59,348 bases of DNA. Origin: a virus. Lineage: Duplodnaviria > Caudoviricetes. Of the stretch, positions 2,024 through 57,383 are shown one piece after another. The position numbers were made by a program, and so were the translations under genes. The stretch is taken from positions 1-59,348 of IMG/VR virus record IMGVR_UViG_3300032242_002944. One strand, written 5' to 3'. Positions within the stretch are counted from its first letter, which is position 1. The number at the start of each line of letters is the position of its first letter. Under the pieces are notes generated by a model. The model was not told where the DNA came from and did no database searches. It was given only the letters and a program-made list of their open reading frames with translations.

Positions 2024-2206
2024 TCAAACGGCAAGCGATAACGTGCTCCGGTAGCGTCGATGCCCTTGCAAGGTCGCCGAACGGAAACTGTAACCGCGCA
2101 CAGTCAACCACGATGCACGGCTGCCGGGGACGTGGGTGAAACACCGGAAAGCAACCGATGAGCGACCAGAGCCGGCCAGCATAGGTGGGACGCTGATGTG
2201 GATCAC
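2024..2206 (-). CDS. Microprotein-array family member (60 aa, MIHISVPP...SLAV)
   Basis: GTG start overlaps the integrase TGA (GTGA); MIHI N-terminus as in array members at 45690-45982. Confidence 0.5.
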   Translation of the reverse strand: MIHISVPPMLAGSGRSSVAFRCFTHVPGSRASWLTVRGYSFRSATLQGHRRYRSTLSLAV

Positions 2207-3198
2207 TGGGACCCCCGTGTGCCGGTTCGGGTCCACTGCGTCTCGATCAGGACCGCCAGGCTGGCGGACGTCTGCTGGCCGTAGACGCGGTCCACCATCG
2301 CGCTGGTGGTGTGGCCCATTAATTTTGCCACAACGTCGTTGCGAACACCGCCTTGCACGAGGATCGACCCGAACGTGCGGCGGAGGTCGTTCCACGTCAC
2401 GGCGGGCACACCGGCTCGCTCGGCGGCGGACGCGAGGTCGCGGCGGGCGTTCGTCCACTCCTGGACGGGCAGGTGCGGGAGCGCTTGCTCCAGGAGCCCT
2501 TGGAACGGGGGCGGCACCGGGATGCGGCGCCAGGCGCCCTCGGTCTTGCTGCCGCGGATCTGGATCGTCCGGTCGGTCGGGTTGTAGTCCTCGGGCCGCG
2601 CACGGAACAGCTCGCCGCGGCGGGCACCGGTGGCGACGACGAACGCGACGGCCGCCGCTCGCTCGGGGTCCAGGTGCGCGCACAGCGCGTGGACCTGGTC
2701 AAGGGTCAGATGCGTCGTCTTGGGCGTGTAGTCCGACGAGACCCACAGCGGTTTCAAAACGTCGACATGTGTCGAAAAGAGCCCACGTTTCGTAGCACGC
2801 AGGATGATCTGGCGGAGCCCGATCCACTCTTTATACAAAGTCGACGTGCTGGCACCTTCGGCCTTGCGCGTCTGAAAATAATCCTCTACCGTGGCCACCG
2901 TGATCTTTGACAACTGAGGCGGCAGGAGCCGGACCAGGTGACCCACTTTGCACTCGTACATATCGAGTGTGCCGTCGGGGACCTTGCGGCTCTCCAGCTC
3001 GCGCAGGAACAGGCCGGCCTCGGTCTTTAGGCTCGCCGCTTCCTTGGCGGCGTAATCCGGATCCGCTCGCTCAAGCTCCCACTTGGCGGCGAGGCGTTCG
3101 GCTACCTTGCGGTTTTTCGTGCGGCAGGATCGCTTTTTCGTGACGCCGTTTTCGGTCCAGCTAGTCCAGTACCTTCCGTTGACCTCATAGATGCGCAT
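2203..3198 (-). CDS. int: Tyrosine recombinase / integrase
   Basis: TGARRGEL (Arg I), KT, WNDLRRTF (HxxR box with H>N), LMGH...MVDRVY (catalytic Tyr); SAM-like N-terminal region. Confidence 0.92.
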   Translation of the reverse strand: MRIYEVNGRYWTSWTENGVTKKRSCRTKNRKVAERLAAKWELERADPDYAAKEAASLKTEAGLFLRELESRKVPDGTLDMYECKVGHLVRLLPPQLSKITVATVEDYFQTRKAEGASTSTLYKEWIGLRQIILRATKRGLFSTHVDVLKPLWVSSDYTPKTTHLTLDQVHALCAHLDPERAAAVAFVVATGARRGELFRARPEDYNPTDRTIQIRGSKTEGAWRRIPVPPPFQGLLEQALPHLPVQEWTNARRDLASAAERAGVPAVTWNDLRRTFGSILVQGGVRNDVVAKLMGHTTSAMVDRVYGQQTSASLAVLIETQWTRTGTRGSQ

Positions 3199-3353
3199 CC
3201 GTCTATATACTTTGTCCGGAGGTCACTCGCAAGGACGCGAAGCGACTTTCCGACACGAAAGCGCGGCATACTGCGCATGATGTTGTACGCGTGCGACCGT
3301 GACACTCGCAGGAGCTGGCACACGGCGCGGACGGATAGGACTTCTAGGTGCAT
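3102..3353 (-). CDS. xis: Excisionase-like winged HTH protein
   Basis: LSVRAVCQLLRVSRSHAYNIM...P.FRVGKSLRV pattern directly upstream of int. Confidence 0.75.
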   Translation of the reverse strand: MHLEVLSVRAVCQLLRVSRSHAYNIMRSMPRFRVGKSLRVLASDLRTKYIDGCASMRSTEGTGLAGPKTASRKSDPAARKTAR

Positions 3354-3511
3354 CGGCTGCCCCCTTCGCTGTACCGTTCTAAAAGCAGACCGGTAGAGGG
3401 GATAGCCCGCGTCGTGAAGATTCCTCGTCGAACATACGAAGCTGGAGAGCCAAACAGCTCGCTATACCCGCGAGCCGCGACGTAGGCTGCCGCCAACCAC
3501 GCGGCGTTCAT
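3344..3511 (-). CDS. Microprotein-array family member (55 aa, MNAAW...GSRCT)
   Basis: ATGA-coupled to upstream ORF; ends S-R-C-T; end overlaps xis start (ATGCACCTAG). Confidence 0.55.
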   Translation of the reverse strand: MNAAWLAAAYVAARGYSELFGSPASYVRRGIFTTRAIPSTGLLLERYSEGGSRCT

Positions 3512-3660
3512 TGGAACCTGCTGACGTCTCGCGACGGGATGCGGGCATTGTGGACATACGAGATGGACGTGTCCCAGACGAATGAAATTCCTGGAAGCGG
3601 GTTGTCGCTCAGAACGCCTCGACAGAGGAGAACGCCCAGGCGGAGGAAAGGGGCGGTCAT
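3508..3660 (-). CDS. Microprotein-array family member (50 aa, MTAPF...VSRFQ)
   Basis: ATGA overlaps at both ends; ends S-R-F-Q. Confidence 0.55.
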   Translation of the reverse strand: MTAPFLRLGVLLCRGVLSDNPLPGISFVWDTSISYVHNARIPSRDVSRFQ

Positions 3661-3800
3661 TGGTGATGACTCCGTAGCGGTGCGAACAGGACGTGACCCT
3701 CGAACGTCGAACGGGACCACTCTCCGACAAACGATATCTGGACGTTGAGGTTTTTGGTTCGGGTTCTGAGGGCGCCCATGCGGAGGTAGTGTGGGCTCAT
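3657..3800 (-). CDS. Microprotein-array family member (47 aa, MSPHY...RSHHQ)
   Basis: Starts just after the terminator; ATGA-coupled to next ORF. Confidence 0.5.
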   Translation of the reverse strand: MSPHYLRMGALRTRTKNLNVQISFVGEWSRSTFEGHVLFAPLRSHHQ

Positions 3801-3804
3801 ACCG

Positions 3805-3835
3805 AAAAAGCCCCCCTGGATTGCTCCAGGGGGGC
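3805..3835 (-). terminator. Rho-independent terminator
   Basis: Minus strand GCCCCCCTGGA-GCAA-TCCAGGGGGGC-TTTTT: 11-bp stem, GNRA loop, U-tract. Confidence 0.85.
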
Positions 3836-3844
3836 CGGTCGGCG

Positions 3845-42861: not shown

Positions 42862-43085
42862 GCGACAACGTCCTCCGGGATCATGGAATCGAACGAGTTC
42901 AGGTAGGCCCGCTCCGCGTGGAGCTGGGCGGCCATGGACGCCGCGTGCAACGTGCGGCTGACCTCGATCGGGGACGCCACGATGGCATACCACTGGCCGT
43001 TGGATAGCTGTCCCACAAAAAGACGAGTGGCCGGGTCCGGCTGCGCCTCCAGGTACGTAGATCGTTCGTTCCAGATCAGTAGCAT
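42858..43085 (-). CDS. Hypothetical protein
   Basis: Coupled small ORF. Confidence 0.5.
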   Translation of the reverse strand: MLLIWNERSTYLEAQPDPATRLFVGQLSNGQWYAIVASPIEVSRTLHAASMAAQLHAERAYLNSFDSMIPEDVVA

Positions 43086-43558
43086 GGCCAGTGGTTCTCC
43101 TTGAGTTCGTTTCGTTGGTCGAACACATACGTTTTGGTCAGGTAAGGCGCCATCGGCGTGCCCTCCTTGTGGCCGAGGCCCAGAACGTGGCCTAGCTCGT
43201 GGAGAGCGATCTCATATTCCATTGTCTCGCAGCCGCCTTTGAAGTACATATCCCCCCCTACCCCGGGGGCCGCGTGGCCGCACTCGATGCCGCCATCGGC
43301 GGCGCTGGCGTCCGGTGGGCTCGGCCCCGCGTCGCCGAACACCATGAAGTTGGCGGTATACTCCCCTGGCGGGCACGTCCGGTATAGAATCTTGGACCCG
43401 CAATACGCGTTCCACGTATCGATGGCCTGGTCGATAGGCGCCTCGTCAATCGTCCCGACAGCCGCCACTCGCACGCAGTAGGGGTCGCGGTACGGGCTGT
43501 ATGAGCACGCAGCAAACAGGATGGCCAGGATCACAGCGACAGCAACGGCGAGTTTCAT
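43076..43558 (-). CDS. Lipoprotein zinc metalloprotease (metzincin / matrixin-like)
   Basis: ILFAA-C lipobox, IDQAIDTWN, HELGHVLGLGH, Met-turn TPMAP; leaderless TATGCT-6-ATG. Confidence 0.82.
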   Translation of the reverse strand: MKLAVAVAVILAILFAACSYSPYRDPYCVRVAAVGTIDEAPIDQAIDTWNAYCGSKILYRTCPPGEYTANFMVFGDAGPSPPDASAADGGIECGHAAPGVGGDMYFKGGCETMEYEIALHELGHVLGLGHKEGTPMAPYLTKTYVFDQRNELKENHWPCY

Positions 43559-43572
43559 GGTATGAGCATAGC

Positions 43573-43728
43573 TCAAACGCATCGGCTGTAAAGGCCGAAG
43601 GCCCAATTAGCTAGGTTTTCACAGGACGAGCCGCTCGTGGCTAGGTATCGGGCGCCCGTCATCGACACGGGCATCCGGCGCCGCATCGTCGTCGACAGCC
43701 CCGGCACGTTGATGGACAGGTAGATCAT
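43573..43728 (-). CDS. Microprotein array member (51 aa, MIYLS...LYSRCV)
   Basis: ATGA-coupled; family termini. Confidence 0.6.
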   Translation of the reverse strand: MIYLSINVPGLSTTMRRRMPVSMTGARYLATSGSSCENLANWAFGLYSRCV

Positions 43729-43913
43729 TCGCAGGTGATCTGGCTCTGGCTCTGGAGGGCGGACGTGAGATAGCAGGTGAGGGACCATGTATATGCGGAA
43801 CCCGCAGAGCTGGTCCACATAGTGTATTCAAGCGTTTTGAACTTGGACATACGTGACTTGCACGTCACCGCGTGCGTGGACGCCAGGAAGTACGGGAGGC
43901 GGTACGTGATCAT
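43725..43913 (-). CDS. Microprotein array member (62 aa, MITYR...QITCE)
   Basis: ATGA-coupled at both ends. Confidence 0.6.
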   Translation of the reverse strand: MITYRLPYFLASTHAVTCKSRMSKFKTLEYTMWTSSAGSAYTWSLTCYLTSALQSQSQITCE

Positions 43914-44047
43914 TTGTAGGTCGTCACTAGGACTGCGCACCAACTGGTCCGCGAGCGTATGCGGTCACCGGAAAAAAACGAATGCCCTGCGCGGCAGCAA
44001 ACCGAGCGGCTCGGGGTGTTCCACCATAGGCGGATGTAGGTGATCAT
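43910..44047 (-). CDS. Microprotein array member (45 aa, MITYI...VTTYK)
   Basis: ATGA-coupled at both ends. Confidence 0.6.
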   Translation of the reverse strand: MITYIRLWWNTPSRSVCCRAGHSFFSGDRIRSRTSWCAVLVTTYK

Positions 44048-44208
44048 ACGCACGCGCTCCACAAACAGGCGGGCACCCAGTGCCGGATGCCTGTATAGTT
44101 TTCGTGCGCGACGTACGAGAACGTCGTCTGGCTGTAGAAACGATGGGTGGCCCAAAAGACGGACTTACCTGTTGCGGCCGGGGCGGGGCCGAAGATGGAG
44201 GCTGTCAT
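44044..44208 (-). CDS. Microprotein array member (54 aa, MTASI...LWSACV)
   Basis: ATGA-coupled at both ends. Confidence 0.6.
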   Translation of the reverse strand: MTASIFGPAPAATGKSVFWATHRFYSQTTFSYVAHENYTGIRHWVPACLWSACV

Positions 44209-44339
44209 CGGTACCGGCTCCACAGAAAGGTCGGGTTCGCGCCCTTGAAGCGTGACGTGCCCGAATACCAAGCGTAATCTGAATCCACGCACGACCGGCC
44301 CGAGAACAAGGGGGCGAGCGCGATAATGGCGGCGGTCAT
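44205..44339 (-). CDS. Microprotein array member (44 aa, MTAAI...LWSRYR)
   Basis: ATGA-coupled at both ends. Confidence 0.6.
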   Translation of the reverse strand: MTAAIIALAPLFSGRSCVDSDYAWYSGTSRFKGANPTFLWSRYR

Positions 44340-44488
44340 TGGTACCTGCTGTACAGCTCGTCGGAGTAGTTTTCCATGTGGGCGGTATAGCTCCACTCGC
44401 CCGTGTAGGAGTGCCAGTAATTGCAATGGCTGCGGAACATGCCAACGTCTGTGAGTACGTAGTACCGGAGGTTTAGGTAGGTCAGCAT
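44336..44488 (-). CDS. Microprotein array member (50 aa, MLTYL...LYSRYQ)
   Basis: Start overlaps MTase stop; manually translated. Confidence 0.6.
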   Translation of the reverse strand: MLTYLNLRYYVLTDVGMFRSHCNYWHSYTGEWSYTAHMENYSDELYSRYQ

Positions 44489-45222
44489 TCGCGCAGCCTA
44501 TGGAGCATGTTTTCGTAAATCCCAGGGTTGCGTTCGATGACGACGAACCGGCGGCCGTGCTTGCGGGCGGCCACAGCGGCCGTGCCCGAGCCGGCGAACA
44601 TATCGACGACCCATTCTCCAGGATTCGTGTGGGCCAGGATGGGGATCTCAAACAGCTTGACGGGTTTCTCCGTCGGGTGGGTCTTGCCCCTCAGAATCTC
44701 CGTGATGTCCGTCCACACGTTCGTGCGGCGGTAGAATTCGCTCTTGGCGGGATACTTCTTATTGTATCCTGCATACGGGCGTTTCGTGTCCAGGAGCGGA
44801 ATATTGAACAGCCTGGGCCTGTCTGCGTTGCAGAAATACGCGCACTCTTCCCGCGTGAATAAATACTTGTGCGGGGTCCCGTACGCGCGCTTTTTGGCCC
44901 AGGTTATGAGATCGAGCATTCGAAGTGGAGTACGTTCTTCACACTCACGTATGAAGTCGAAAAACGGTCTGTGACCGACCTTCCCCACCCCGCCCCACAC
45001 ATAGAACGCCGCCCCCCTAAGTGCGGCGCTTGAATAGTGCTGTAGCGTCGTTGCAAGCTCTTTTGGGTCCAGTACATCCCATTCCTCTTTCGTGATACCG
45101 CCGTACGGCGGGTCCGTGACGACTAGGGCGATCGGGTTCTGCGTAGCCGCGGCGATGACCGCAGGATCAGCAGCGTCGCCACGGATCGCCAGGCTGCCGT
45201 CGCTGAACGTGTGCGTGATCAA
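44482..45222 (-). CDS. DNA methyltransferase (N4C/N6A, beta class)
   Basis: VVTDPPY, HPTEKP, VVDMFAGSGT. Confidence 0.92.
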   Translation of the reverse strand: MITHTFSDGSLAIRGDAADPAVIAAATQNPIALVVTDPPYGGITKEEWDVLDPKELATTLQHYSSAALRGAAFYVWGGVGKVGHRPFFDFIRECEERTPLRMLDLITWAKKRAYGTPHKYLFTREECAYFCNADRPRLFNIPLLDTKRPYAGYNKKYPAKSEFYRRTNVWTDITEILRGKTHPTEKPVKLFEIPILAHTNPGEWVVDMFAGSGTAAVAARKHGRRFVVIERNPGIYENMLHRLREC

Positions 45223-45317
45223 TCGAAGTACCCCATGAGGGCGCCGAGGATGACGATGGTCGCGCCGGCCAGGATGATGCCGGTTACAGCAAGGGCGAGG
45301 AGCGCGAGGATGAACAT
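45219..45317 (-). CDS. Small membrane peptide (32 aa)
   Basis: MFILALLALAVTGIILAGATIVILGALMGYFD; TTGA coupling to MTase. Confidence 0.55.
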   Translation of the reverse strand: MFILALLALAVTGIILAGATIVILGALMGYFD

Positions 45318-45318
45318 T

Positions 45319-45498
45319 TTAGAAATCACTCCAGGGGGTGGGTAGGGCGGGCATGGTGGGGAACTGAGGCAGCGTCGGCGGGTCGGTGTGGGAGGTGGGG
45401 TCGGGCTCGGGGATGCACTCCGTGCAGACGTACGTGTCCATGGGCTCGTGGCGGCGGTCGGTGCGGGCGCCGCAGAGATAGCAGGTTCTCTCGCTCAT
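45319..45498 (-). CDS. Small zinc-finger protein with Pro-rich tail (59 aa)
   Basis: CYLC...CTEC; leaderless promoter TTGACC-16-TAGAAC-6-ATG. Confidence 0.6.
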   Translation of the reverse strand: MSERTCYLCGARTDRRHEPMDTYVCTECIPEPDPTSHTDPPTLPQFPTMPALPTPWSDF

Positions 45499-45528
45499 AG
45501 CGGTGTTCTAGCACGGTTTGGGCAGTGG

Positions 45529-45693
45529 TCAATAGGACGAGCACTGGTACTGGTTCACGCAGCTCCAGCCGTCGTTCGAGAACGACAGCGCCGGCTCGGA
45601 CGTTAGGAGGGGGATGTATCCGGGGCCTCGCAAGAACGTGGAGTGGTGTTGGCATCCCGGTCGGAATCTCCCGTGGACGGCAAGGTACATCAT
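45529..45693 (-). CDS. Microprotein array member (54 aa, MMYLA...QCSSY)
   Basis: ATGA-coupled. Confidence 0.6.
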   Translation of the reverse strand: MMYLAVHGRFRPGCQHHSTFLRGPGYIPLLTSEPALSFSNDGWSCVNQYQCSSY

Positions 45694-45827
45694 CGGGACC
45701 AGTGCGCGATGCAGACGGCCAGCGTGCGGTGGTGGTGGTAGGTGCACCACGGGGCTTGTGTGTAGCTCATGGCACTTAGGTAGACGGTCGGGGGCACGAG
45801 CGGGCGGTACTGGAGGATATGGATCAT
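45690..45827 (-). CDS. Microprotein array member (45 aa, MIHIL...HWSR)
   Basis: ATGA-coupled at both ends. Confidence 0.6.
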   Translation of the reverse strand: MIHILQYRPLVPPTVYLSAMSYTQAPWCTYHHHRTLAVCIAHWSR

Positions 45828-45982
45828 TCGCATGTGCTCGCGAGTTGGATGAGCAGGCCGGAGCCGACGAGGCTGGTGTTCTGGACGACGCGGGTTTCGC
45901 GGTCCGTCCGGGAGTGGGAGCGGGTGTGGGAGCGCGACGTGTAGAAGGGGTTGAACCGCCAGTGGGATAGGATGTGGATCAT
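45824..45982 (-). CDS. Microprotein array member (52 aa, MIHIL...ASTCE)
   Basis: ATGA-coupled at both ends; manually translated. Confidence 0.6.
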   Translation of the reverse strand: MIHILSHWRFNPFYTSRSHTRSHSRTDRETRVVQNTSLVGSGLLIQLASTCE

Positions 45983-46149
45983 CGCGCAAAAAAGAACAAT
46001 GAATCTTTGTGTCGAATGAAGCTGTACATGACATTGTAATCAGCCTGATTTGTAAACCTCATCATTAGTTTCACGCCAAACCTGCCGATGCGGGCTTTGA
46101 TCACAGAACTATCTGCGGGAGGGCGCAGAGGGTAGAGCGTTAGTAGCAT
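45979..46149 (-). CDS. Microprotein array member (56 aa, MLLTL...FFFAR)
   Basis: Coupled at both ends; manually translated; visibly AT-richer. Confidence 0.55.
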   Translation of the reverse strand: MLLTLYPLRPPADSSVIKARIGRFGVKLMMRFTNQADYNVMYSFIRHKDSLFFFAR

Positions 46150-46316
46150 GTCGTGTGCTCCAGAAATAGCCGATCCGAAGGCGGTGTGAGGATGTATACA
46201 ATACCGCTTCGGTCACTCGTAGTCGGATATCGGTTCGTGACGGATCTTTGCTTTCCCATAGCTATTCGGGATTCGCCTTTGATAGGCCACCTGCGGCGGA
46301 GGTAGGTTACTTGCAT
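46140..46316 (-). CDS. Microprotein array member (58 aa, MQVTY...HTTCY)
   Basis: 10-nt ATGCnnnTAA overlaps at both ends. Confidence 0.6.
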   Translation of the reverse strand: MQVTYLRRRWPIKGESRIAMGKQRSVTNRYPTTSDRSGIVYILTPPSDRLFLEHTTCY

Positions 46317-46453
46317 ACGGAATACATGAAATTTGCCCGCGTGTAGGCGCGGTCGGTCCAGCCTACAACCCAATAATTGTGCGCGAATTGGTACGGGTGC
46401 CTTTGGAGGTAAAGCCTCGACCCGCTTTTGATACGCGGTATTATGGCCATCAT
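46307..46453 (-). CDS. Microprotein array member (48 aa, MMAII...MYSVCK)
   Basis: Coupled at both ends. Confidence 0.6.
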   Translation of the reverse strand: MMAIIPRIKSGSRLYLQRHPYQFAHNYWVVGWTDRAYTRANFMYSVCK

Positions 46454-46647
46454 CGGTACACGCTCCGGCGGACGTAGAACTCCGGCGTGTTGATATGGCT
46501 GCCCAGGTTGCGGGCGTAATCGAACCCCGGCGCGCGGGTCCGCCGGATGCGGCCGTAGTGCTTCGGGAAGGTGAGCAGTTGGGGCGGCACGCTCAGCGCC
46601 GAGCGCCGGGTGGGGACGTACAGTGTGGCTGTATAGGGGAGGATCAT
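46450..46647 (-). CDS. Microprotein array member (65 aa, MILPY...RSVYR)
   Basis: ATGA-coupled. Confidence 0.6.
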   Translation of the reverse strand: MILPYTATLYVPTRRSALSVPPQLLTFPKHYGRIRRTRAPGFDYARNLGSHINTPEFYVRRSVYR

Positions 46648-46830
46648 CGGAACCGCGACCAGGTGGGCCAGGGGCAGATGGTGTCGCAGTTGCTTCGACT
46701 ATCGCCGCAGCAGTACGACCCGATGCCGGGTGCGGGAGTACATGGCCCGAAGACCGATGGGCCACTCCACGGGGTGGGACAGAGTGCTGCGGGAATCGTA
46801 CGGGTTGACGACGCGGTGGAGGGAGGTCAT
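46644..46830 (-). pseudogene. Frameshifted microprotein array member
   Basis: ATG 46830 frame stops at TAG 46699; the family-type end (WSRFR-TGA overlapping next ATG) is in the +1 frame; span is 187 nt = 3n+1. Confidence 0.5.
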
Positions 46831-46988
46831 CGGAACGTGGTCCAGGCGATCACGGGAGTGTCAAACGACAGGTAGTCGCCATCGATACTGGATCGTAGGG
46901 GGGCGGAGCAGTATCGCCAGTCGGAGCGGGGGCTGACTTTTACACGGATTCCGCTCCGGGTGAAATATCCGGCGTAGGGTGGGAACAT
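46827..46988 (-). CDS. First microprotein array member (53 aa, MFPPY...AWTTFR)
   Basis: Manually translated; leaderless promoter upstream. Confidence 0.6.
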   Translation of the reverse strand: MFPPYAGYFTRSGIRVKVSPRSDWRYCSAPLRSSIDGDYLSFDTPVIAWTTFR

Positions 46989-47023
46989 CGGACAGTGGTA
47001 CCACGCGATTTGGGACTGTGCAA
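46989..47023 (-). promoter_or_regulatory. Leaderless promoter of microprotein array
   Basis: TTGCAC-17 nt-TACCAC-6 nt-ATG with extended TG. Confidence 0.5.
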
Positions 47024-47039
47024 ATTGTTTGGAAGGGGG

Positions 47040-47195
47040 TTGACAAGTGTTGTGAGGCGATTTACGCGCGCCCGCGCGGAAACTTTCTACTCTACTACTC
47101 TCTAATAATCTATATATATATAGTATAATAGTAGTAAAGGGAAGAGAGTTTTTCCTGCGCGTGCGCGCGTAAGTCTTGGCCGAGAGTCTGTCAAG
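47040..47195. other. Imperfect palindromic AT-cored element 2 (inverted relative of 8102-8259)
   Basis: TTGACA..TTACGCGCG..pyrimidine tract-CTATATATATATAG-purine tract..GCGCGCGTAAGTCT..TGTCAAG. Confidence 0.55.
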
Positions 47196-47263
47196 GGGGG
47201 TGGACGATTATTTGCGAGGGTGAGGCTGATGTGGTTCTTTAGAGTCGGAGGTTCCAGTTAGCG

Positions 47264-47611
47264 ATGGCCAACCATGTTATCTATCTGAGCCCTGAGAACG
47301 AAGAGTTCGTCGGGGAGATTTGCCGGCAGGAGTCCTGCAAGGTTTCGAAAGCCGTGTCTATCATCCTGACCGAATGCCGCGCCGCGCGGTCTAGCGCCCC
47401 TGGGGGCGGCGTCGTGTCGTTCGTGGACGCGGTCATCGCCGAGCTTTGGGCCATGGGGTATGTCCGGTTCCCGACCCACGCCGAGGCGGCGGCAATGGGT
47501 TGGTCGCTGGATTATTACAAGCGAGCGGCCAAGGACCGAGCTTGGATTTCTGCTTCGTTGCACACCCGGAGCCTGCGGTCGGCCGGTGCCCGGGAGGCGG
47601 CGGGGACGTGA
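47264..47611 (+). CDS. Hypothetical protein, possible ribbon-helix-helix N-terminus
   Basis: GGAGG RBS; HVIYLSPE...VSKAVSIIL. Confidence 0.55.
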   Translation: MANHVIYLSPENEEFVGEICRQESCKVSKAVSIILTECRAARSSAPGGGVVSFVDAVIAELWAMGYVRFPTHAEAAAMGWSLDYYKRAAKDRAWISASLHTRSLRSAGAREAAGT

Positions 47612-48603
47612 AGAGGCCCCGTCGCCGGGTAGACGCCATCCGCTGGAAGGCCCGCGCCGAGCAGACCTTGGGGCTGAGGGCGGTGCTGGAGATGTTCGCC
47701 CAGCGGCTGATCGAGAACGGGGCCTACAAGCCGGGCTTCGAGCTGCGGCCGGGCAAGCCGCACCCCTGGATGACCGTGGACGAGGCGGCGCTCCTGAAGT
47801 CCAACTACCGCTGGCTGTGCGAGCGGCTGTGGGGCGGCGCGCCGGCCGGGATGACGTGGGAGCGGGAGCCGTGGATAGAACTGAAGGTGAAGTGGTACGA
47901 CGGGGAACTGAAAAAAATCGTACACAAGCTCATGGCGGCTTCACTCCGGGACCGCGCGCTCCTGGGTTTTACCAAGGGGTCGAAAGACTTTTTGCAATTC
48001 TGCATCAAGATTACAGCCATGGCGTACGGCTTCTCCGGCGGGTCCGACGTGGGGTCCGCCGAGAACGGCGGCGGCCTGGCTGTCCGTGACCAGGCGGCCT
48101 GGGACCTGGTACGCCGTATCCGCCAGGCGCCGAGTATGTCACAAATCGAAGGAGCAATGGAGACCATGAAGAACATGGATTTGTATAAAATCAAGATGCC
48201 CGAGGGCTCGGTAGCGGCGGGAGAAGACATTCACGTGGACGCCACGTTCCACCTACCGGCCTGGCTCGCGCGGCGGCTGCGGGACCTCCGGCTGCGATTC
48301 GACACCACGCGGTCCTGGGTCGCCGAGCAGGCGCTGGCCTACGCGTTTGAGCAGGAAGCATTTATTGCAAGACTGGAAGGCTTGGCGGCTGCGGGTCAGG
48401 TGCCGGGTCCGCGGGGCATCCCGCTGGCCGCCCGGGACCCGGAGGCGGGCCGGGCACGGCAGAAAAAAGAAAAAGCGACGTACAGCAAGTTCCTGCAACA
48501 GAAAGAGGCTGAGCGGGCGGCCAAGCGGGCCGCGAAGCGGGCGGCCAAGCAGGCGGACGCCGAGGCTTACGCGGCGGGACGGCCGAAGCCGGGTGGGTCG
48601 TGA
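47608..48603 (+). CDS. Hypothetical protein with RHH-like domain and basic tail
   Basis: GTGA-coupled; ATFHLPAWLARRL...TTRSWVAEQAL; RAAK repeats. Confidence 0.6.
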   Translation: MKRPRRRVDAIRWKARAEQTLGLRAVLEMFAQRLIENGAYKPGFELRPGKPHPWMTVDEAALLKSNYRWLCERLWGGAPAGMTWEREPWIELKVKWYDGELKKIVHKLMAASLRDRALLGFTKGSKDFLQFCIKITAMAYGFSGGSDVGSAENGGGLAVRDQAAWDLVRRIRQAPSMSQIEGAMETMKNMDLYKIKMPEGSVAAGEDIHVDATFHLPAWLARRLRDLRLRFDTTRSWVAEQALAYAFEQEAFIARLEGLAAAGQVPGPRGIPLAARDPEAGRARQKKEKATYSKFLQQKEAERAAKRAAKRAAKQADAEAYAAGRPKPGGS

Positions 48604-48914
48604 CGCTCGACGACACGGTGACCAAGGCGGACATAATCCGCACGATCCGTCTGCTTGAGACGGAAGGCTGGGGCGGGGGTCGCGGCGGGCTGGACCAAAG
48701 GGTCGACCGCCTGGGGGTGCCCTATGCCCACATCGCGGAGGAGGCCCTCCGGGAAGCGGCGGGTGGGGGCCTGTGGCGGGTGGCGGTCGGAGACGAGGGG
48801 CGGGTGGTCGCCGCAGCTCTCCGAGCCCTCTCACGGGAGAGCCAAAAACAAGGGGTCCGTCAGGAGGCTCGCGGCCGTAAACGCGTTTCTGGGACCGGGG
48901 TGGGGGGTAGGTAG
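48600..48914 (+). CDS. Hypothetical protein
   Basis: GTGA-coupled. Confidence 0.5.
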   Translation: MTLDDTVTKADIIRTIRLLETEGWGGGRGGLDQRVDRLGVPYAHIAEEALREAAGGGLWRVAVGDEGRVVAAALRALSRESQKQGVRQEARGRKRVSGTGVGGR

Positions 48915-49421: not shown

Positions 49422-49584
49422 TAGCTACTTTTGAGGCAAAAAAGGGCAATTGTCAAAGCAAAAGCGCGCCTTCCTTATAAAAAGGGTGCGAAAATGTAGT
49501 CCCTTACCGATCGGTAAGCTGGCCCACCCTTTGCTACACCGCGTTTTTTCTTGACCTCTGCTCAAATCGTGTCACTGTTTGAAT

Positions 49585-49767
49585 ATGCACTCTGCTCAAA
49601 AACTGTCCGCCTCCGACGCCGCCGCCGCAGCTCGTCTCGCCCTCATGGTCTCCGATACCATGCACGCCGCACGCGCCTACGGCGCGGCGGCGGCGTGGAG
49701 CCGCACGGCCTTCCACCTCGCCGCCATCGCGGCTCGCTCCGCTCGCCGTGCCTCCCCCGCCCGCTAA
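49585..49767 (+). CDS. Ala-rich hypothetical protein (putative early gene)
   Basis: Follows TTGACC promoter-like sequence; C-ending codons. Confidence 0.55.
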   Translation: MHSAQKLSASDAAAAARLALMVSDTMHAARAYGAAAAWSRTAFHLAAIAARSARRASPAR

Positions 49768-49786
49768 CCCGAAAGGCTCCCCCACC

Positions 49787-50074
49787 ATGTATACCATCGA
49801 AGTCCGCGCCTACGCCCCCTCCGTCTCCTGCCGCCACGCTGTCCTCGACGCGGCGCTGGCCCTCGTCGTCGCCCGTGAATCACCGCTTGCGTGGGCCATC
49901 GACGGCGGCGCGTCCGTCTCCCCCGGCGACCCTGCATGGCTTTGCGGCAACGTTGGGTACCCCAAGACCGACGTCGACGTTGAGGGCGCCGTCCTCATTG
50001 CCTCGCACGCATGGCGCAAGGGGTACGCGGCCGAAGACGCCGCGCCCACCGAACGCATGATCCCGCTGGTCTGA
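49787..50074 (+). CDS. Hypothetical protein (putative early gene)
   Basis: GAAAGG RBS; C-ending codons. Confidence 0.6.
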   Translation: MYTIEVRAYAPSVSCRHAVLDAALALVVARESPLAWAIDGGASVSPGDPAWLCGNVGYPKTDVDVEGAVLIASHAWRKGYAAEDAAPTERMIPLV

Positions 50075-50223
50075 CCTCCGCCACGGCCCACCCCGCTCCC
50101 ACGGCCCCGCTCGCCCACGCGACCGGGGCCGTTGTCGTTTGCGCACACACCAAAATGCGCCCACGAGGTTGCCACAATCCCGCCCGCATGGCATTGAATA
50201 CTATCCAACCGGAGGTCCCAACC

Positions 50224-50598
50224 ATGCCCATCCACCCCGCCCGCCTCTTCACACTTCGAGTCCGCCTGACGGACAACAGTCTCGTGACAATCAACGCGGA
50301 AGAGGAAATGGCTCCGCAGTTCGGCCCGCAACCCCGTATCCTTGTCGAGGTCATCCACAAGGGCCAGCCGGTCTTCCCCCTGGGCGCGCTTTGGTGTTCC
50401 CTCGCGCCGGCATCCCGCGCCACCATCGACGGCCTCGAAGCCCGTTCCTTGGTCCTCAGCCTCGTCGCCATGCGCCCCGGCGACACCGATAGCGAGTATT
50501 TCAGTATGTACACCGCCGCCCAGCGTGAGTGGGCGGAGGCTCACGGCGAGTACCTCACCATGGTTGCCGAAGAGCGCTACGGCGCCGACGCGATCTGA
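50224..50598 (+). CDS. Conserved-looking phage hypothetical protein (putative early gene)
   Basis: GGAGG RBS; MRPGDTDSEYFSMYT..QREWAE.HGE.L. Confidence 0.7.
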   Translation: MPIHPARLFTLRVRLTDNSLVTINAEEEMAPQFGPQPRILVEVIHKGQPVFPLGALWCSLAPASRATIDGLEARSLVLSLVAMRPGDTDSEYFSMYTAAQREWAEAHGEYLTMVAEERYGADAI

Positions 50599-50667
50599 CC
50601 CAACCCCGACCCCGCCCCGCCCCGGCGCCTCACGGCCCCGGGGCTTTCGGCGTTGGAGGTCCCAACC

Positions 50668-50892
50668 ATGCACACCGCCTATCAGACATGCGCCGATTGT
50701 TCCGTAGTCCTTTCCAACGATGACGCGTCTCACCTGCCCGACGCCGCAGCCGCCCGCACCTTGGCGGGCGTCCAGCGCCTCGGTGCCGTGAGCTACCTCG
50801 GTCCCCTCGTCTCGCCGCAAACGGCGCCTTGTGCCTGCTGCGGCGCCCGGCGGGCCCTCGCGGACGCGTGGGCGAAGTTCCCTGCCCGCTAG
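50668..50892 (+). CDS. Small zinc-binding protein (CxxC...CxxC)
   Basis: CADC...CACC; same 17-bp leader GGAGGTCCCAACCATGC as 50211-50227. Confidence 0.6.
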   Translation: MHTAYQTCADCSVVLSNDDASHLPDAAAARTLAGVQRLGAVSYLGPLVSPQTAPCACCGARRALADAWAKFPAR

Positions 50893-50948
50893 CCAACCCT
50901 AGGCCCGCGATCGCGACCCCGTCCCCCTGACGGGGTCGCACCGGCCCA

Positions 50949-51820: not shown

Positions 51821-52504
51821 TCAAAAATGCGCACAAGCGTCGGCGAAGCCTGACAGCTCCGCCGCGGCGTCGACGGCCTCCCGAATTGACGGCAAAGCAC
51901 GCGCGTCCGCCTCGATGCGTGCGAGGTCCTTTTGCAACCGCCGGATCTCCCCCGTCCCCGCGCCCGACTTGAGCGCTTCCGCTAGATCCGTTCTCATACG
52001 CGCAATGACGGACCGCACTACGTCTGGTCCACTCTCGGCCGTCGCGACATAGATCCGCGCCCACCCCGCAACGTCCGCCCGCAGCCGGCGGAGGTCACCC
52101 GTGCGCTCTTCGGGGACAAGCCATACGCCGGCTCGAACGCCGTACCCTAGCCGGTCTAGTGCATCGTAGACCGTCTCGCGCGCCTCGGGGATAGCGGGCG
52201 CGCACGCTTTCTCATACTCGCGGTCTAGCCCCCCGTCCCACGAAGGGCCCGCGCTGAACACCACGCGCCAAGAGTTACGAACCGAGGTCACGACAAGTTT
52301 TTCCGTCCAAGTGCCGCCGTCGACGGCCCCGAGACTGCCGCCGTCACGCTGTAGGATCCGATGCTGCTTTGCCGCGTAGACCAGTTTCAAATCCGCCCGA
52401 TCCGTCACCATGGCCGCAAGGGCCCGCCGGAGCGCAATTGACGCCGCGGGCGGCTTACAACCCGCGGGGACCCCGACAACGTCTACCCATACGATTTCAC
52501 TCAT
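51821..52504 (-). CDS. Hypothetical protein associated with MoxR/VWA pair
   Basis: ATGA-coupled to VWA gene; VRAGVWLVP segment and C-terminal coiled coil. Confidence 0.6.
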   Translation of the reverse strand: MSEIVWVDVVGVPAGCKPPAASIALRRALAAMVTDRADLKLVYAAKQHRILQRDGGSLGAVDGGTWTEKLVVTSVRNSWRVVFSAGPSWDGGLDREYEKACAPAIPEARETVYDALDRLGYGVRAGVWLVPEERTGDLRRLRADVAGWARIYVATAESGPDVVRSVIARMRTDLAEALKSGAGTGEIRRLQKDLARIEADARALPSIREAVDAAAELSGFADACAHF

Positions 52505-53598
52505 GTTCGTCCCTTCTTTCCGTCTTCGATTTGGATCACTTCGCCGTGCGAGGCGGGCTTTTTCCCGCCGGGCGTGACACACCAGATCAATTGCATCACC
52601 CTCGGCTGGTGGACACGCCCCTCCCCGTACCCGTCCGTAATGTAGACCAAGGACCGATAGCCCTGACCCTCAGCCCATCGGATAAGCGGGGAGAATTCCG
52701 TCCCGCCGCCGCCCATGGGCTCCCACGTCCGGCCCATGGAACGGGCTTTGCCAGTGGACGCCACTTGCGTATCGCCAGCAATTACCGTTATGTCACAATT
52801 CAGAGATTGCACAATCTCTTTCACCCGAGCGGCGGCGAATTTCAGCTCCCGTTCACCCATTGAACCGGACGTGTCAATGGCTATGCACACGTTGGGCCGA
52901 TGGCCAGTGATGCGTCCAAGGATGATCCCGTCCGAGACGCACGCCCCCAGCCGAGCTAGGCGCCCATAGTCGCGCGTCTCGGCGCCTTCTTTCGAAAGCT
53001 CCGTAATGAGCGACCGACGGAGGATTTGGTACCACCGGATCCGCCGCGCGGGCGGGGTCCCCGGCAACTGCCGGACGACCCAACCCGGAACATCACCTTT
53101 TGCCAACCCCGCGGATCGTGCGTCGTCGAACATTGCAGCGCCGTCTTTCGCGGCGCCTTCCGGGCAAGAATGCGCCGCCGCGTAGGCGGGATCGCCAGCA
53201 ACCCCGCCGTCTTCGCCTTCCCCGTCCTCCCCCTCCCCGCCGGGGTCCTGGTAGTATTCCTCCGCCGTGAGACCCTGGGCGCCCGCCCGCGAGACGGTAC
53301 ACCAGCGCAGATCCTTCATGGGCAATTCAAGCGATAGCTTCGCCGCGGCCCACCAAGTGTCTTGATCTTTCGAGACGCCGCGTGTGTAGTGGGCGAGCAT
53401 GTAGTGCAAGGCCTCGCGCGCAACGTCAGCCGGCCCGGCTGACGTGGGGAGCATCACCTTCCCGTCGCCGTGGGACGACGGGAGACGGTGATCGTCGGAA
53501 ATGTCCCATTTGATTGCCGCAAGCGTCGGACCGAGCCAGGGCCAAGCCCGGTCAACGGCCGCGATAGCAGACCAAACTTTGGTGACGCGGGGATTCAT
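52501..53598 (-). CDS. VWA-domain protein with N-terminal metallopeptidase-like (DUF2201-like) domain
   Basis: IDTSGSM MIDAS, DT, GGGGTEF, YITDGYG; REALH in place of HExxH; LTAEEYY. Confidence 0.8.
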   Translation of the reverse strand: MNPRVTKVWSAIAAVDRAWPWLGPTLAAIKWDISDDHRLPSSHGDGKVMLPTSAGPADVAREALHYMLAHYTRGVSKDQDTWWAAAKLSLELPMKDLRWCTVSRAGAQGLTAEEYYQDPGGEGEDGEGEDGGVAGDPAYAAAHSCPEGAAKDGAAMFDDARSAGLAKGDVPGWVVRQLPGTPPARRIRWYQILRRSLITELSKEGAETRDYGRLARLGACVSDGIILGRITGHRPNVCIAIDTSGSMGERELKFAAARVKEIVQSLNCDITVIAGDTQVASTGKARSMGRTWEPMGGGGTEFSPLIRWAEGQGYRSLVYITDGYGEGRVHQPRVMQLIWCVTPGGKKPASHGEVIQIEDGKKGRT

Positions 53599-54698
53599 CC
53601 GGTCACCGTCATGATGCGACGGGCAAGAGAAATGCTCAGGTTGGCTTTGAACGTGGGGACCATTGCCGCGATTTTGGGCGCAACAGCCTCCTTATGGTGG
53701 GTCGCCCAGCCTAGCAGACATTCGAAGGCGATCTCGCAATTCTCCGCCGTAGCAGCCTTCATGACGGCGTCCGCCATATAGGCAACTTGATCCGTGCGCG
53801 CGCCCGACGCGTTCCACGTCACGCGACCCGTCAAGAGATCCGTGACGCTGGGGAGGTCACGGTACGCGGCGTGCGCCCAAAGAGCGGCCCCCGCTTGCGC
53901 TCCGACGGCGCCGTTGATCAACATACGCTCGCCCGCAGGTCCGAGGCCGTGAAGCCGCGCCGCGGCCATGCCGCAAGCGGCGAGAGACCAAGCCCGGGGG
54001 GAGGGCCACGGGCTATCGCCCTCCCCGTCCTTCGGGCGGACGCGAGCCCACTGAGGATGGGCGGAGAGGAAAGATTCGATCTCGGCTCCGACGCCCGCGT
54101 AGACTTCGGAGGCCCTTGTGGCGAGGATCCGCCGGAAAGCTTGCCAGTCGGACAAGCCGCCCTCAACAATGCGCGACTTGTTTTGCACCAATTGCGCCCG
54201 CACCATGGCGCCCGTCTCGGCTCCGTTCATGACGGTCCACGGGATATGGATGAAGCGATTCGCTTGCGGGGGATCGAGGGGCAACCCGTTAGGCGAGTCG
54301 TCCGCCGAATTCGAAAGCGCGATAACGGCGACGTCACGCCCCAGGGCATGGCCCCCCACGCGACGATCCAACGTCAGCCCCAGGAGGGCCGGCCGGAGGA
54401 CGACGGGCGCCGTCCTAAGCTCGTCTACGATCACCAGCCCGCCGACGGCGACCTCGTCCGTCCAACCCGGGCGGGGATAGTCGACGACGCCCCCCACAAC
54501 AGCAGGGACGGCCCCGAAATATGCCTCCCCCGTCTCGCCAGGTGAGAGGAGTACGTAGGGCATACCGTGAGCCTCCGCCACGGCGGCCGCGACGGACGAC
54601 TTACCCTCACCGGGCGCGCCGGTGAAGAGACAAGGCACGCCCCAGCCCCAAGGGGTAGGAGTGAAAATCACGGCACGAATGATATCTGACATGTTCAT
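53595..54698 (-). CDS. MoxR-family AAA+ ATPase
   Basis: GAPGEGKS Walker A, VIVDEL Walker B, SN sensor, ANRF Arg finger, PSPRAW. Confidence 0.85.
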   Translation of the reverse strand: MNMSDIIRAVIFTPTPWGWGVPCLFTGAPGEGKSSVAAAVAEAHGMPYVLLSPGETGEAYFGAVPAVVGGVVDYPRPGWTDEVAVGGLVIVDELRTAPVVLRPALLGLTLDRRVGGHALGRDVAVIALSNSADDSPNGLPLDPPQANRFIHIPWTVMNGAETGAMVRAQLVQNKSRIVEGGLSDWQAFRRILATRASEVYAGVGAEIESFLSAHPQWARVRPKDGEGDSPWPSPRAWSLAACGMAAARLHGLGPAGERMLINGAVGAQAGAALWAHAAYRDLPSVTDLLTGRVTWNASGARTDQVAYMADAVMKAATAENCEIAFECLLGWATHHKEAVAPKIAAMVPTFKANLSISLARRIMTVTG

Positions 54699-57113: not shown

Positions 57114-57383
57114 TCACGTCCTTCGACGTGAGTTCGTTGAAACCGAGCCGTTGCCGTAGCCGTCGCCGTAGCCGTAGCCGTAGCCGTAGCCGTCGCCGTT
57201 GCCGTAGTCGTCGCCGTAGCCGTAGCCGTCGCCGTAGCCGTAGCCGTCGCCGTAGCCGTAGCCGTCGCCGTAGCCGTAGCCGTAGCCGTCGCCGTTGCCG
57301 TTGCCGTTGCCGTTGCCGTAGCCGTAGCCGTAGCCGTGGCCGTAGCCGTAGCCGTGGCCGAAAGGCCCGATGTGCGTAGACAT
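57114..57383 (-). CDS. Gly-Tyr/Asp/Asn dipeptide repeat protein
   Basis: (G-Y/D/N/H)n; TGATG coupling to upstream gene. Confidence 0.7.
   Translation of the reverse strand: MSTHIGPFGHGYGYGHGYGYGYGNGNGNGNGDGYGYGYGDGYGYGDGYGYGDGYGYGDDYGNGDGYGYGYGYGDGYGNGSVSTNSRRRT
57147..57360. repeat. Hexamer tandem repeat GCCGTN (about 35 units)
   Basis: gccgta/gccgtc/gccgtt/gccgtg tandem array. Confidence 0.95.

Follow-up and report, generated by a model that had tools for sequence, protein, structure and literature searches.

Phages carry clusters of small early or accessory ORFan genes, including host-takeover modules and plastic early regions. We analyzed a set of small open reading frames (ORFs) in the virus record IMGVR_UViG_3300032242_002944, whose whole stretch of 59,348 nucleotides (nt), here called the window, is the genome of an uncultured temperate tailed phage. 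Three minus-strand chains hold 18 units with a total length of 2,850 nt, or approximately 5% of the genome. The units are named c1_1 to c1_9 (chain 1), c2_a to c2_f (chain 2), and c3_1 to c3_3 (chain 3). Like the ORFan clusters, they are tandem small genes of unassigned function at an operon start and lack homologues beyond a narrow lineage, whereas they differ in being compositionally distinct from the other small genes of the genome, in sharing a common junction cassette, and in occupying three loci, one of them upstream of the xis and int genes. Coupled small ORFan genes at the heads of phage operons are a known kind of arrangement. What is unusual in this phage is the length and purity of the ATG-only chains, a private cassette at three loci, CCTCC after the start codon on mRNA that is free of GGAGG, and an odd proteome. 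A full-text literature search found no description of an array of this kind. The reading to which we assign about even chances is that the units are real, lineage-specific coupled microgenes of a temperate phage, in which a nucleic-acid junction cassette would have been kept by descent, by selection for coupling, or by both, and in which the middle segments would be unrelated or diverged beyond recognition.

The chains also resemble the precursor arrays of ribosomally synthesized and post-translationally modified peptides (RiPPs), which combine a conserved leader with a hypervariable core, in that both line up several short ORFs whose ends are alike and whose middles differ. However, the conserved parts of the units span only about 5–6 residues, for which the DNA level offers most of the explanation. 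A leader profile could not be built, and searches of Pfam and PHROGs identified no maturation enzyme among the neighbours (a methylase, a zinc-ribbon protein, a membrane peptide, and an M10-like peptidase). Integron cassette arrays consist of promoterless small ORFs in the same orientation, with unrelated contents and short conserved boundaries. The units likewise are small ORFs on the same strand with unrelated contents and short conserved boundaries, but they overlap by 4–10 nt, their boundary repeats are 20–40 nt long and 70–82% identical, and the sole integrase, a tyrosine integrase, is of phage type (phrog_1). The overlaps leave no intergenic room for attC sites, and no inverted-repeat pair was found at the junctions.

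Termination-reinitiation at overlapping stop and start codons is an established coupling mechanism, according to a review (PMC12548453). ATGA-type coupled pairs are, like the units, co-oriented with overlaps of 4–10 nt and little or no Shine-Dalgarno (SD) sequence, and a relay by one ribosome would be expected in both. In contrast to such pairs, the runs in the phage are unbroken (seven, six, and three units with ATG starts only) and longer than any in 1.65 Mb of control sequence, the units share a private junction sequence, and CCTCC stands just past the start codon. NTGA overlaps also occur elsewhere in the genome, in 39 of 74 called genes, and the junction cassette common to the units is absent from these other coupled genes. 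The comparison set of 73 or 74 other genes was produced with a crude home-made gene caller, and all such counts depend on this caller.

A sequence-only reading of this DNA had proposed 15 minus-strand ORFs of 43–65 amino acids (aa) in two gap-free chains as translationally chained small genes, and the ORFs do behave as real genes of this type. All 15 were found where it had placed them, each with an ATG start and 12 with a TGA stop, and their junctions have the ATGA or ATGCnnnTAA form that it had described. GC content at third codon positions (GC3) and codon log-odds trained on long genes track the proposed frames and switch frame at every overlap. GC3 of the units ranges from 0.54 to 0.90 and is lowest in c1_4, c1_5, and c1_6. 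As in coupled chains, the ORFs are co-oriented and overlap by no more than approximately 10 nt; overlaps of 4–10 nt with the next gene were present at 16 of 17 junctions. The exception is c1_2/c1_3, where the TAG stop codon of c1_2 leaves 51 nt before the ATG of c1_3, so that chain 1 is not gap-free. Chain 3 (3344–3800, n = 3), located directly upstream of xis/int, had been missed. It was traced through c3_2, the sole gene outside the array with the C-terminal motif described below, and its ATGA and ATGC overlaps and N-termini are of the same kind as those of chains 1 and 2.

All 18 units start with ATG, compared with 40 of 73 other genes. We scanned for chains of ORFs of 40–70 aa with ATG starts only and overlaps of 1–10 nt, using both strands of 123 phage loci (1.65 Mb, median GC 0.64) as controls. 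The window contains ATG-only chains of seven, six, and three units, whereas the longest control chain has three. When mixed start codons were allowed, chains of four to six ORFs were common in the control loci; thus, the ATG-only comparison is the meaningful one. Eight of the 15 ORFs of chains 1 and 2 (8 of the 18 units) are already present in a public protein collection with the exact sequence, as singleton clusters called independently by public pipelines. The expectation that standard gene callers would miss or mis-start most of the ORFs was therefore correct for about half of them.

We regard it as very improbable that the units are not genes but arose by chance in GC-rich DNA or reflect coding on the opposite strand or under another genetic code. 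The peptides are odd and random-looking with a low frequency of G at the first codon position (G1), they have no homologues, mixed-start chains are common in GC-rich controls, and GC3 is only approximately 0.55 in c1_5 and c1_6, all of which would fit such an explanation. However, the frame-tracking GC3 signal switches exactly at the ATGA junctions, and ATG-only chains of six and seven units exceed the control maximum. The plus-strand frame sharing third positions contains stop codons in 16 of 18 units, and stop depletion relative to shuffled sequences was observed on the minus strand only; plus-strand coding was dropped for these reasons. Reading TGA as Trp gave ORFs that do not follow the GC3 frames and no long frame-consistent ORF, and well-supported genes mostly stop at TGA. 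No known RNA family was detected with Rfam, where the best matches (E = 0.019 and 0.045) were far under the gathering scores. Longer ORFs in alternative frames were absent from the protein collection (0 of 10), although this comparison is weak for those starting with GTG or TTG because the first residue may be translated differently.

The C-terminal motif is real and specific to the units. The sequence [ST]x[CFY]x before the stop codon ends 10 of the 15 units in chains 1 and 2, whereas among the other called genes it ends 1 of 74, and it matches 18 of 720 (2.5%) internal 4-mers. It ends only 1 of 39 NTGA-ended genes, which argues against the motif being a general by-product of ATGA coupling in this genome, a possibility that the sequence-only reading itself had raised. 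Among 1018 ORFs in six frames, 18 end with the motif, and 14 of these lie inside the three chains. With a leave-one-out C-terminal position-specific scoring matrix (PSSM), using the composition of the units themselves as background, 10 of 18 units scored above all 73 other genes. The recurrences noted at the N-terminus (MITY, MIHIL, and MTA, twice each) are correct, and the N-terminal PSSM was weaker: two of 18 units scored above all controls, and six of 18 were exceeded by two or fewer.

The information in the motif lies largely in the nucleotides, and what the termini share consists mainly of a junction cassette split into two halves. Ser at position −4 is encoded by AGC in 8 of 10 cases, compared with a background of 22–25% (p of approximately 2–4 × 10−4), often with GG before it (GGAGC) or AGG after it. 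GGAGC and AGCAGG are weak SD-like elements located 8–10 nt from the next ATG. In the −2 codon, T at nt −6 is present in 16 of 18 units and C at nt −4 in 17 of 18, and the middle base is free, yielding Tyr, Phe, and Cys, and also Ser; the TnC codon, which the sequence-only reading had called invariant, occurs in 13 of the 15 units first described. In c1_4, c1_5, c1_7, c2_f, and c3_3, the TGC codon is the ATG of the next gene plus C. The ATGA overlap and the GC3 preference together account for the final NNA and for A[TC]C as the second codon. CCTCC is found within 30 nt after the ATG in 10 of 18 units but in only 3 of 73 other genes, in two reading registers, and GGAGG does not occur in the 2,850 nt of the units, compared with 99 times in 49,776 nt elsewhere. 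An SD-occluding hairpin, in which GGAG would pair with the downstream CCTCC, was also considered. The mean fold z was +0.21 for units and −0.07 for other starts, with no consistent structure; since the junction folds are no more stable than shuffled sequences, this idea was dropped.

The use of several Ser and Thr codons at position −4 had been taken as a sign of protein-level constraint. TCC, ACC, and ACG are indeed used, but the AGC bias, the T-N-C pattern with its free middle base, and the five TGC codons that are the next start weaken this argument. It formed part of a model in which the units are a diversified peptide library of decoys or inhibitors of host defence, with the C-terminal [LM][WY]S-x-[YFC]-x and the hydrophobic N-terminus as protein-level signals. 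The ends might be a tag for a protease, a modifying enzyme, or export, or might be paired end strands presenting a variable middle. We consider this model unlikely. The motif is highly unit-specific, Ser and Thr at −4 are swapped through changes of 2–3 nt between sister junctions (direct-repeat family D8), Trp or Tyr is often present at −5, and the last unit of chain 2 is coupled to a metallopeptidase gene. The Tyr/Trp/Ser/Arg-rich composition, which resembles that of binding surfaces, also agrees with it. The nucleotide features listed above point instead to DNA-level causes, the strict [ST]x[CFY]x end is missing in 5 of 15 units (8 of 18 with chain 3), and the N-terminal signal is weak. In addition, no modifying enzyme was recognized nearby with Pfam or PHROGs, the peptidase has an export-type signal by eye whereas the units have none by eye, and AlphaFold2 (AF2) models showed no shared fold.

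The junctions are also the strongest direct repeats of the region: D1 (four copies, 22 nt), D2 (41 nt), D4 (37 nt), and D8. If the junction of roughly 20–40 nt were a hotspot of recombination or duplication, small ORFs with no relation to each other could be acquired, lost, and reshuffled through it, which would account for boundaries that stay conserved at three loci although the contents they enclose are unrelated. The same junction type at loci approximately 40 kb apart and a junction remnant that lacks an ORF, which the end of c1_8 matches except for 6 nt, fit this explanation. We nevertheless consider it highly improbable: the arrangement was seen in one genome only, no recombinase is tied to the arrays save the ordinary phage integrase beside chain 3, the repeats are short and imperfect, and the overlapping ORFs leave no attC-like space.

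The remnant concerns c1_2. The frame 46826–46644 is open but has no ATG, GTG, or TTG, and it ends with SRFR, which had been listed among the C-termini of chain 1. The remnant shows 80% identity over 20 nt to the c1_1/c1_2 junction (family D8). A start-less frame that ends in a junction-like remnant suggests that c1_2 is a frameshifted or truncated unit, or that the assembly contains a 1-nt error. GC3 is high in both frames near the end of c1_2 (46644–46830); besides a frameshift within the unit or a 1-nt assembly error, a programmed shift could account for this double frame.

The odd, acid-poor composition reported for the encoded proteins was confirmed. Compared with other genes, Tyr (2.35-fold), Cys (2.48-fold), His (1.88-fold), and Trp (1.72-fold) are enriched, and Glu (0.32-fold), Asp (0.44-fold), and Lys (0.41-fold) are depleted. 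The other small genes of the phage have an ordinary composition: the fraction of Asp plus Glu is typically 0.10–0.24 in these genes and at most 0.10 in the units, and G1 is 0.35–0.52 versus 0.15–0.30. Third codon positions of the units are 75% GC, with C well above G. Based on codon-position composition, 64 Tyr were observed versus 31 expected, 26 Trp versus 15, and 50 Pro versus 75, and the departure from independence was as large by chi-square as that of ordinary genes at the same sample size. The excess of Tyr and Trp over the nucleotide expectation, together with GC3 far above GC1 and GC2, argues for some selection on the encoded residues, chiefly the aromatic ones.

The minus-strand genes at 45200–47000 have the strongest coding-strand skew of C over G in the genome, down to −0.37. 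The units and two small neighbours account for 9 of the 11 most C-skewed coding strands. This skew extends to the zinc-ribbon gene and the 36-aa membrane peptide and is therefore a property of the region rather than of the units alone. The Rho factor prefers RNA that is C-rich, G-poor, and untranslated. Translation itself, rather than its products, might therefore matter: ribosome-covered C-rich, G-poor leaders would shield the leftward operon and xis/int from Rho-type termination or RNA decay, and downstream expression would track the translation state of the cell. We judge this explanation to be rather unlikely. It agrees with the skew ranking, the absence of GGAGG from 2,850 nt, the even composition of codon positions 1 and 2, the unrelated middles, and the location of the chains at the 5′ end of the leftward operon and right after the terminator upstream of xis/int. 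On the other hand, GC3 far above GC1 and GC2 and the two-fold excess of Tyr indicate residue selection, and chain 2 lies in the middle of the operon after the methylase gene.

For coupled microgenes, ribosomes would be passed from unit to unit by termination-reinitiation at the 4–10 nt start/stop overlaps, a step suggested by the geometry only. The cassette would comprise four parts: the weak SD-like GGAGC or AGCAGG approximately 8–10 nt upstream, translated as Trp/Arg-Ser; a −2 codon of the form T-N-C, which five times would provide an upstream alternative ATG-C; NNA-TGA; and the pyrimidine-rich start of the next ORF, with A[TC]C followed by CCTCC within 30 nt. Its persistence may reflect local duplication (shown only for c2_b/c2_c and hinted at for c2_d/c2_e, c1_7/c1_8, and c3_1/c3_2), coupling selection, or both. 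The predicted products are basic, acid-poor small proteins rich in Tyr, Trp, Ser, Thr, and Arg, and the leftward and xis/int operons would yield them in fixed proportion from their 5′ parts. Their position and composition are consistent with accessory proteins that interact with the host in takeover, anti-defence, or exclusion; host proteins or nucleic acids are plausible targets. The analysis shows the ORFs themselves, their coupling geometry and codon periodicity, the specificity and nucleotide bias of the motif, and the ORFan status, whereas translation, reinitiation, the duplication history, and function are what we infer.

Several observations weigh against coupled microgenes. The coding scores of c1_4, c1_5, c1_6, and the chain-3 units are weak, and codon positions 1 and 2 are nearly even in composition (G1 of 0.22 versus 0.39 in other genes), unlike in ordinary proteins. 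The occurrence of TCC, ACC, and ACG at the −4 position leaves room for a peptide-level component. By SD-like score, the unit junctions do not exceed other genes, and no RNA structure was predicted at the junctions from fold z relative to shuffled sequences; thus, we infer the role of the cassette in reinitiation. In leave-one-out profile hidden Markov model (HMM) searches, the left-out unit was never found with E < 0.01 and ranked 50th or lower of 947 in 12 of 15 cases, and c2_b and c2_c (blastp E = 2.7 × 10−4, z = 7.4) are the sole demonstrable paralogue pair. The AF2 model of c2_c has a pLDDT of 57 (18-row alignment, with a low-confidence C-terminal hairpin) and that of c2_a, modelled alone, 69 (one helix), with different secondary structures, and the ESM Atlas model of c2_e has a pLDDT of 0.34. 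Homologues of the units were found nowhere in protein collections, metagenomes, or IMG/VR, and the support comes from a single metagenomic genome.

The shared peptide family and shared fold considered in the sequence-only reading were not found: the HMMs of each chain found only their own chain, the middle segments had a mean pairwise z of 0.06 in local alignments over 153 pairs after removal of the ends, with two pairs above 3, and the AF2 models, all of low confidence, did not resemble one another. The likeness of c3_1/c3_2 (z = 4.3), c1_7/c1_8, and c2_d/c2_e is mostly in the first residues. As that reading had also stated, the units belong to no recognized family; PHROGs matched 0 of 18 units, and the best Pfam match of a single unit (E = 0.075) was not significant.

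Wider searches gave similar results. An exhaustive HMMER search with c2_a against 1.84 billion representatives returned only c2_a itself and two proteins of approximately 1,350 aa, which repeat a 13-residue look-alike and were rejected as homologues. Searches with c1_3 and with a c2_b/c2_c profile returned only themselves, relatives of c2_e were absent from JGI metagenome DNA and those of c2_c from IMG/VR, and the ESM Atlas gave no usable match for the units. Megablast, blastn, and tblastn searches of a phage database found nothing resembling the window. A methylase-based scan of IMG/VR yielded 22 loci that share the methylase only. IMG/VR scans found no relatives of the 385-aa neighbour, the portal protein, or the primase, and none of the M10-like peptidase were found in JGI metagenomes or IMG/VR. 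Loci with relatives of the large terminase subunit (TerL), 80 from IMG/VR (identity of 45% or less) and 21 from GTDB (43% or less), contained no unit homologue (tblastn E < 0.03) and no motif-bearing chain; the titles of the GTDB loci name Polyangiaceae and other metagenome-assembled genomes. Closer TerL homologues, with 73% and 67% identity, occur on contigs of 7.5 and 12.5 kb from ENA and Logan. The one sequencing run listed with this DNA is the probable source, stored as contigs, and no RNA run is among those listed; two runs of the same study contain short pieces with less than 90% identity, mostly of the methylase. One distant TerL relative (locus L080, 4414–5401, plus strand) has six small overlapping ORFs with GC3 of 0.82 upstream of the terminase, none of them ending in the motif. 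In this phage group, chains of small genes that lack the cassette may be common.

The coordinates of the units and of the surrounding features are summarized in Table 1. The minus strand from approximately 47.0 kb to 42.4 kb is a nearly unbroken run of overlapping genes, followed by packaging and structural genes. Chain 2 is coupled downstream to the gene for the M10-like peptidase, whose start probably overlaps c2_f as ATGCGTTTGA; its translation contains a motif of the HExxHxxGxxH type and, by eye, a lipoprotein-type signal. A leaderless promoter (TTGCAC-17-TACCAC) had been proposed at the head of chain 1. A scan of 43000–47700 for promoters of the sigma-70 type reported none on the minus strand near 46988–47030, and the proposed −10 element TACCAC, inspected by eye, lacks the final T of TAnnnT.

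Table 1 Positions of the chained units and of neighbouring features in the window.
Feature	Position	Strand	Description
Whole window	59,348 bp		Complete IMG/VR virus record; direct terminal repeats; ~61% GC; 0 tRNA
Tyrosine integrase	2203–3198	−	phrog_1
xis-like gene	3199–3353	−	HTH_17 excisionase type; downstream of chain 3
c3_3	3344–3511	−	55 aa; end SRCT; overlaps start of xis-like gene (ATGCACCTAG)
c3_2	3508–3660	−	50 aa; starts MTA; end SRFQ
c3_1	3657–3800	−	47 aa; end SHHQ; ATG 8 nt past strong terminator
Intrinsic terminator hairpin	3809–3836	−	12 pairs, 9 G-C, then T run; adjoins chain 3 upstream
M10 (matrixin)-like zinc peptidase	43076–43582	−	PF00413, E = 1 × 10−4, below curated cut-off
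c2_f	43573–43728	−	51 aa; end SRCV; TGC is ATG-C of next gene
c2_e	43725–43913	−	62 aa; starts MITY; end ITCE
c2_d	43910–44047	−	45 aa; starts MITY; end TTYK
c2_c	44044–44208	−	54 aa; end SACV
c2_b	44205–44339	−	44 aa; end SRYR; paralogue of c2_c
c2_a	44336–44488	−	50 aa; 30% aromatic; end SRYQ
N6/N4 DNA methylase	44482–45222	−	Coupled to chain 2 via ATGCTGA
Hydrophobic, membrane-like peptide	45219–45329	−	32–36 aa
Cys-rich zinc-ribbon-like protein	45319–45498	−	59 aa; between chains 1 and 2; C-skewed like the units; DUF7573, E = 5.4 × 10−5, below curated cut-off
c1_9	45529–45693	−	54 aa; closes chain 1; end motif absent; 30-nt gap before zinc-ribbon gene
c1_8	45690–45827	−	45 aa; starts MIHIL; end ...HWSR, the 46644 junction minus 6 nt
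c1_7	45824–45982	−	52 aa; starts MIHIL; end STCE; GC3 0.90; most C-skewed gene of the genome
c1_6	45979–46149	−	56 aa; end motif absent; GC3 0.53–0.54, weak
c1_5	46140–46316	−	58 aa; end TTCY; overlaps 10 nt at both ends; GC3 0.56–0.57, weak
c1_4	46307–46453	−	48 aa; end SVCK; TGC codon is ATG-C of next unit; weak coding signal
c1_3	46450–46647	−	65 aa; GC3 0.89; end SVYR; singleton in public collection; no homologues
Junction-like remnant	46644–46698	−	Reads ...WSRFR-TGA; frame without start codon; TGA overlaps ATG of c1_3
c1_2	46699–46830	−	43 aa; TAG stop; no end motif; 51-nt gap after
c1_1	46827–46988	−	53 aa; first unit of chain 1; end TTFR; own frame best, GC3 0.70–0.72; ATGA overlap with c1_2
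Divergent intergenic region upstream of chain 1	46989–47263		AT-rich core

Within the divergent intergenic region, an AT-rich core at 47050–47200 (a TATATATATA run) lies between GC-rich palindromic stretches and may be a control region or an origin. The plus-strand gene at 47264 has a possible ribbon-helix-helix-like N-terminus by eye only and no Pfam match. Replication and modification genes of the window include those for a PrimPol/VapE primase, a family-A polymerase, and the N6/N4 methylase, and TerL, the portal protein, and the major head proteins are only weakly recognizable. A 104-aa protein (48600–48914, plus strand) has a weak, sub-threshold match to ribosomal protein S21 (PF01165, E = 0.0028, 17.8 bits versus a cut-off of 27). 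If this match is true, an S21-like phage protein beside SD-poor, CCTCC-rich microgenes would be of interest. At 49500–50900, the plus-strand genes of the caller have a C-skewed coding strand and are overlapped by a 336-aa minus-strand ORF (49810–50820), so that strand and frames are ambiguous. Of two neighbouring minus-strand genes at 52501–54698, one encodes an AAA ATPase and the other a protein whose DUF2201 domain is VWA-like (E = 9.8 × 10−16). An 89-aa minus-strand ORF (57114–57383) consists almost entirely of Gly-Tyr, Gly-Asn, and Gly-Asp dipeptide repeats and has the top coding score per length among the small genes listed; its sole Pfam match is weak and below the cut-off (TrAA12-like, E = 3.6 × 10−5).

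A further and quite unlikely reading is that the phage carries a germline battery of binders, in which at least 18 Tyr/Trp/Ser/Thr/Arg-rich microproteins would be made in fixed ratios by ribosome relay, with the cassette serving both as a reinitiation signal and as a breakpoint for duplication, loss, and replacement. If true, it would allow rapid production of new small proteins against targets of host defence or takeover, with cassette-style innovation at the heads of the late and xis/int operons. At present, the chains are best valued as a well-defined oddity of one metagenomic genome, rather than as a demonstrated system. If the units are translated, approximately 5% of the genome would encode aromatic- and hydroxyl-rich, nearly acid-free microproteins on the most C-skewed mRNA of the phage. 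They would then allow SD-independent reinitiation signals (T-N-C-NNA-TGA followed by CCTCC) to be studied in a natural setting, provide a candidate set of small host-interaction proteins, and serve as a case study of how a phage makes and keeps very young genes.

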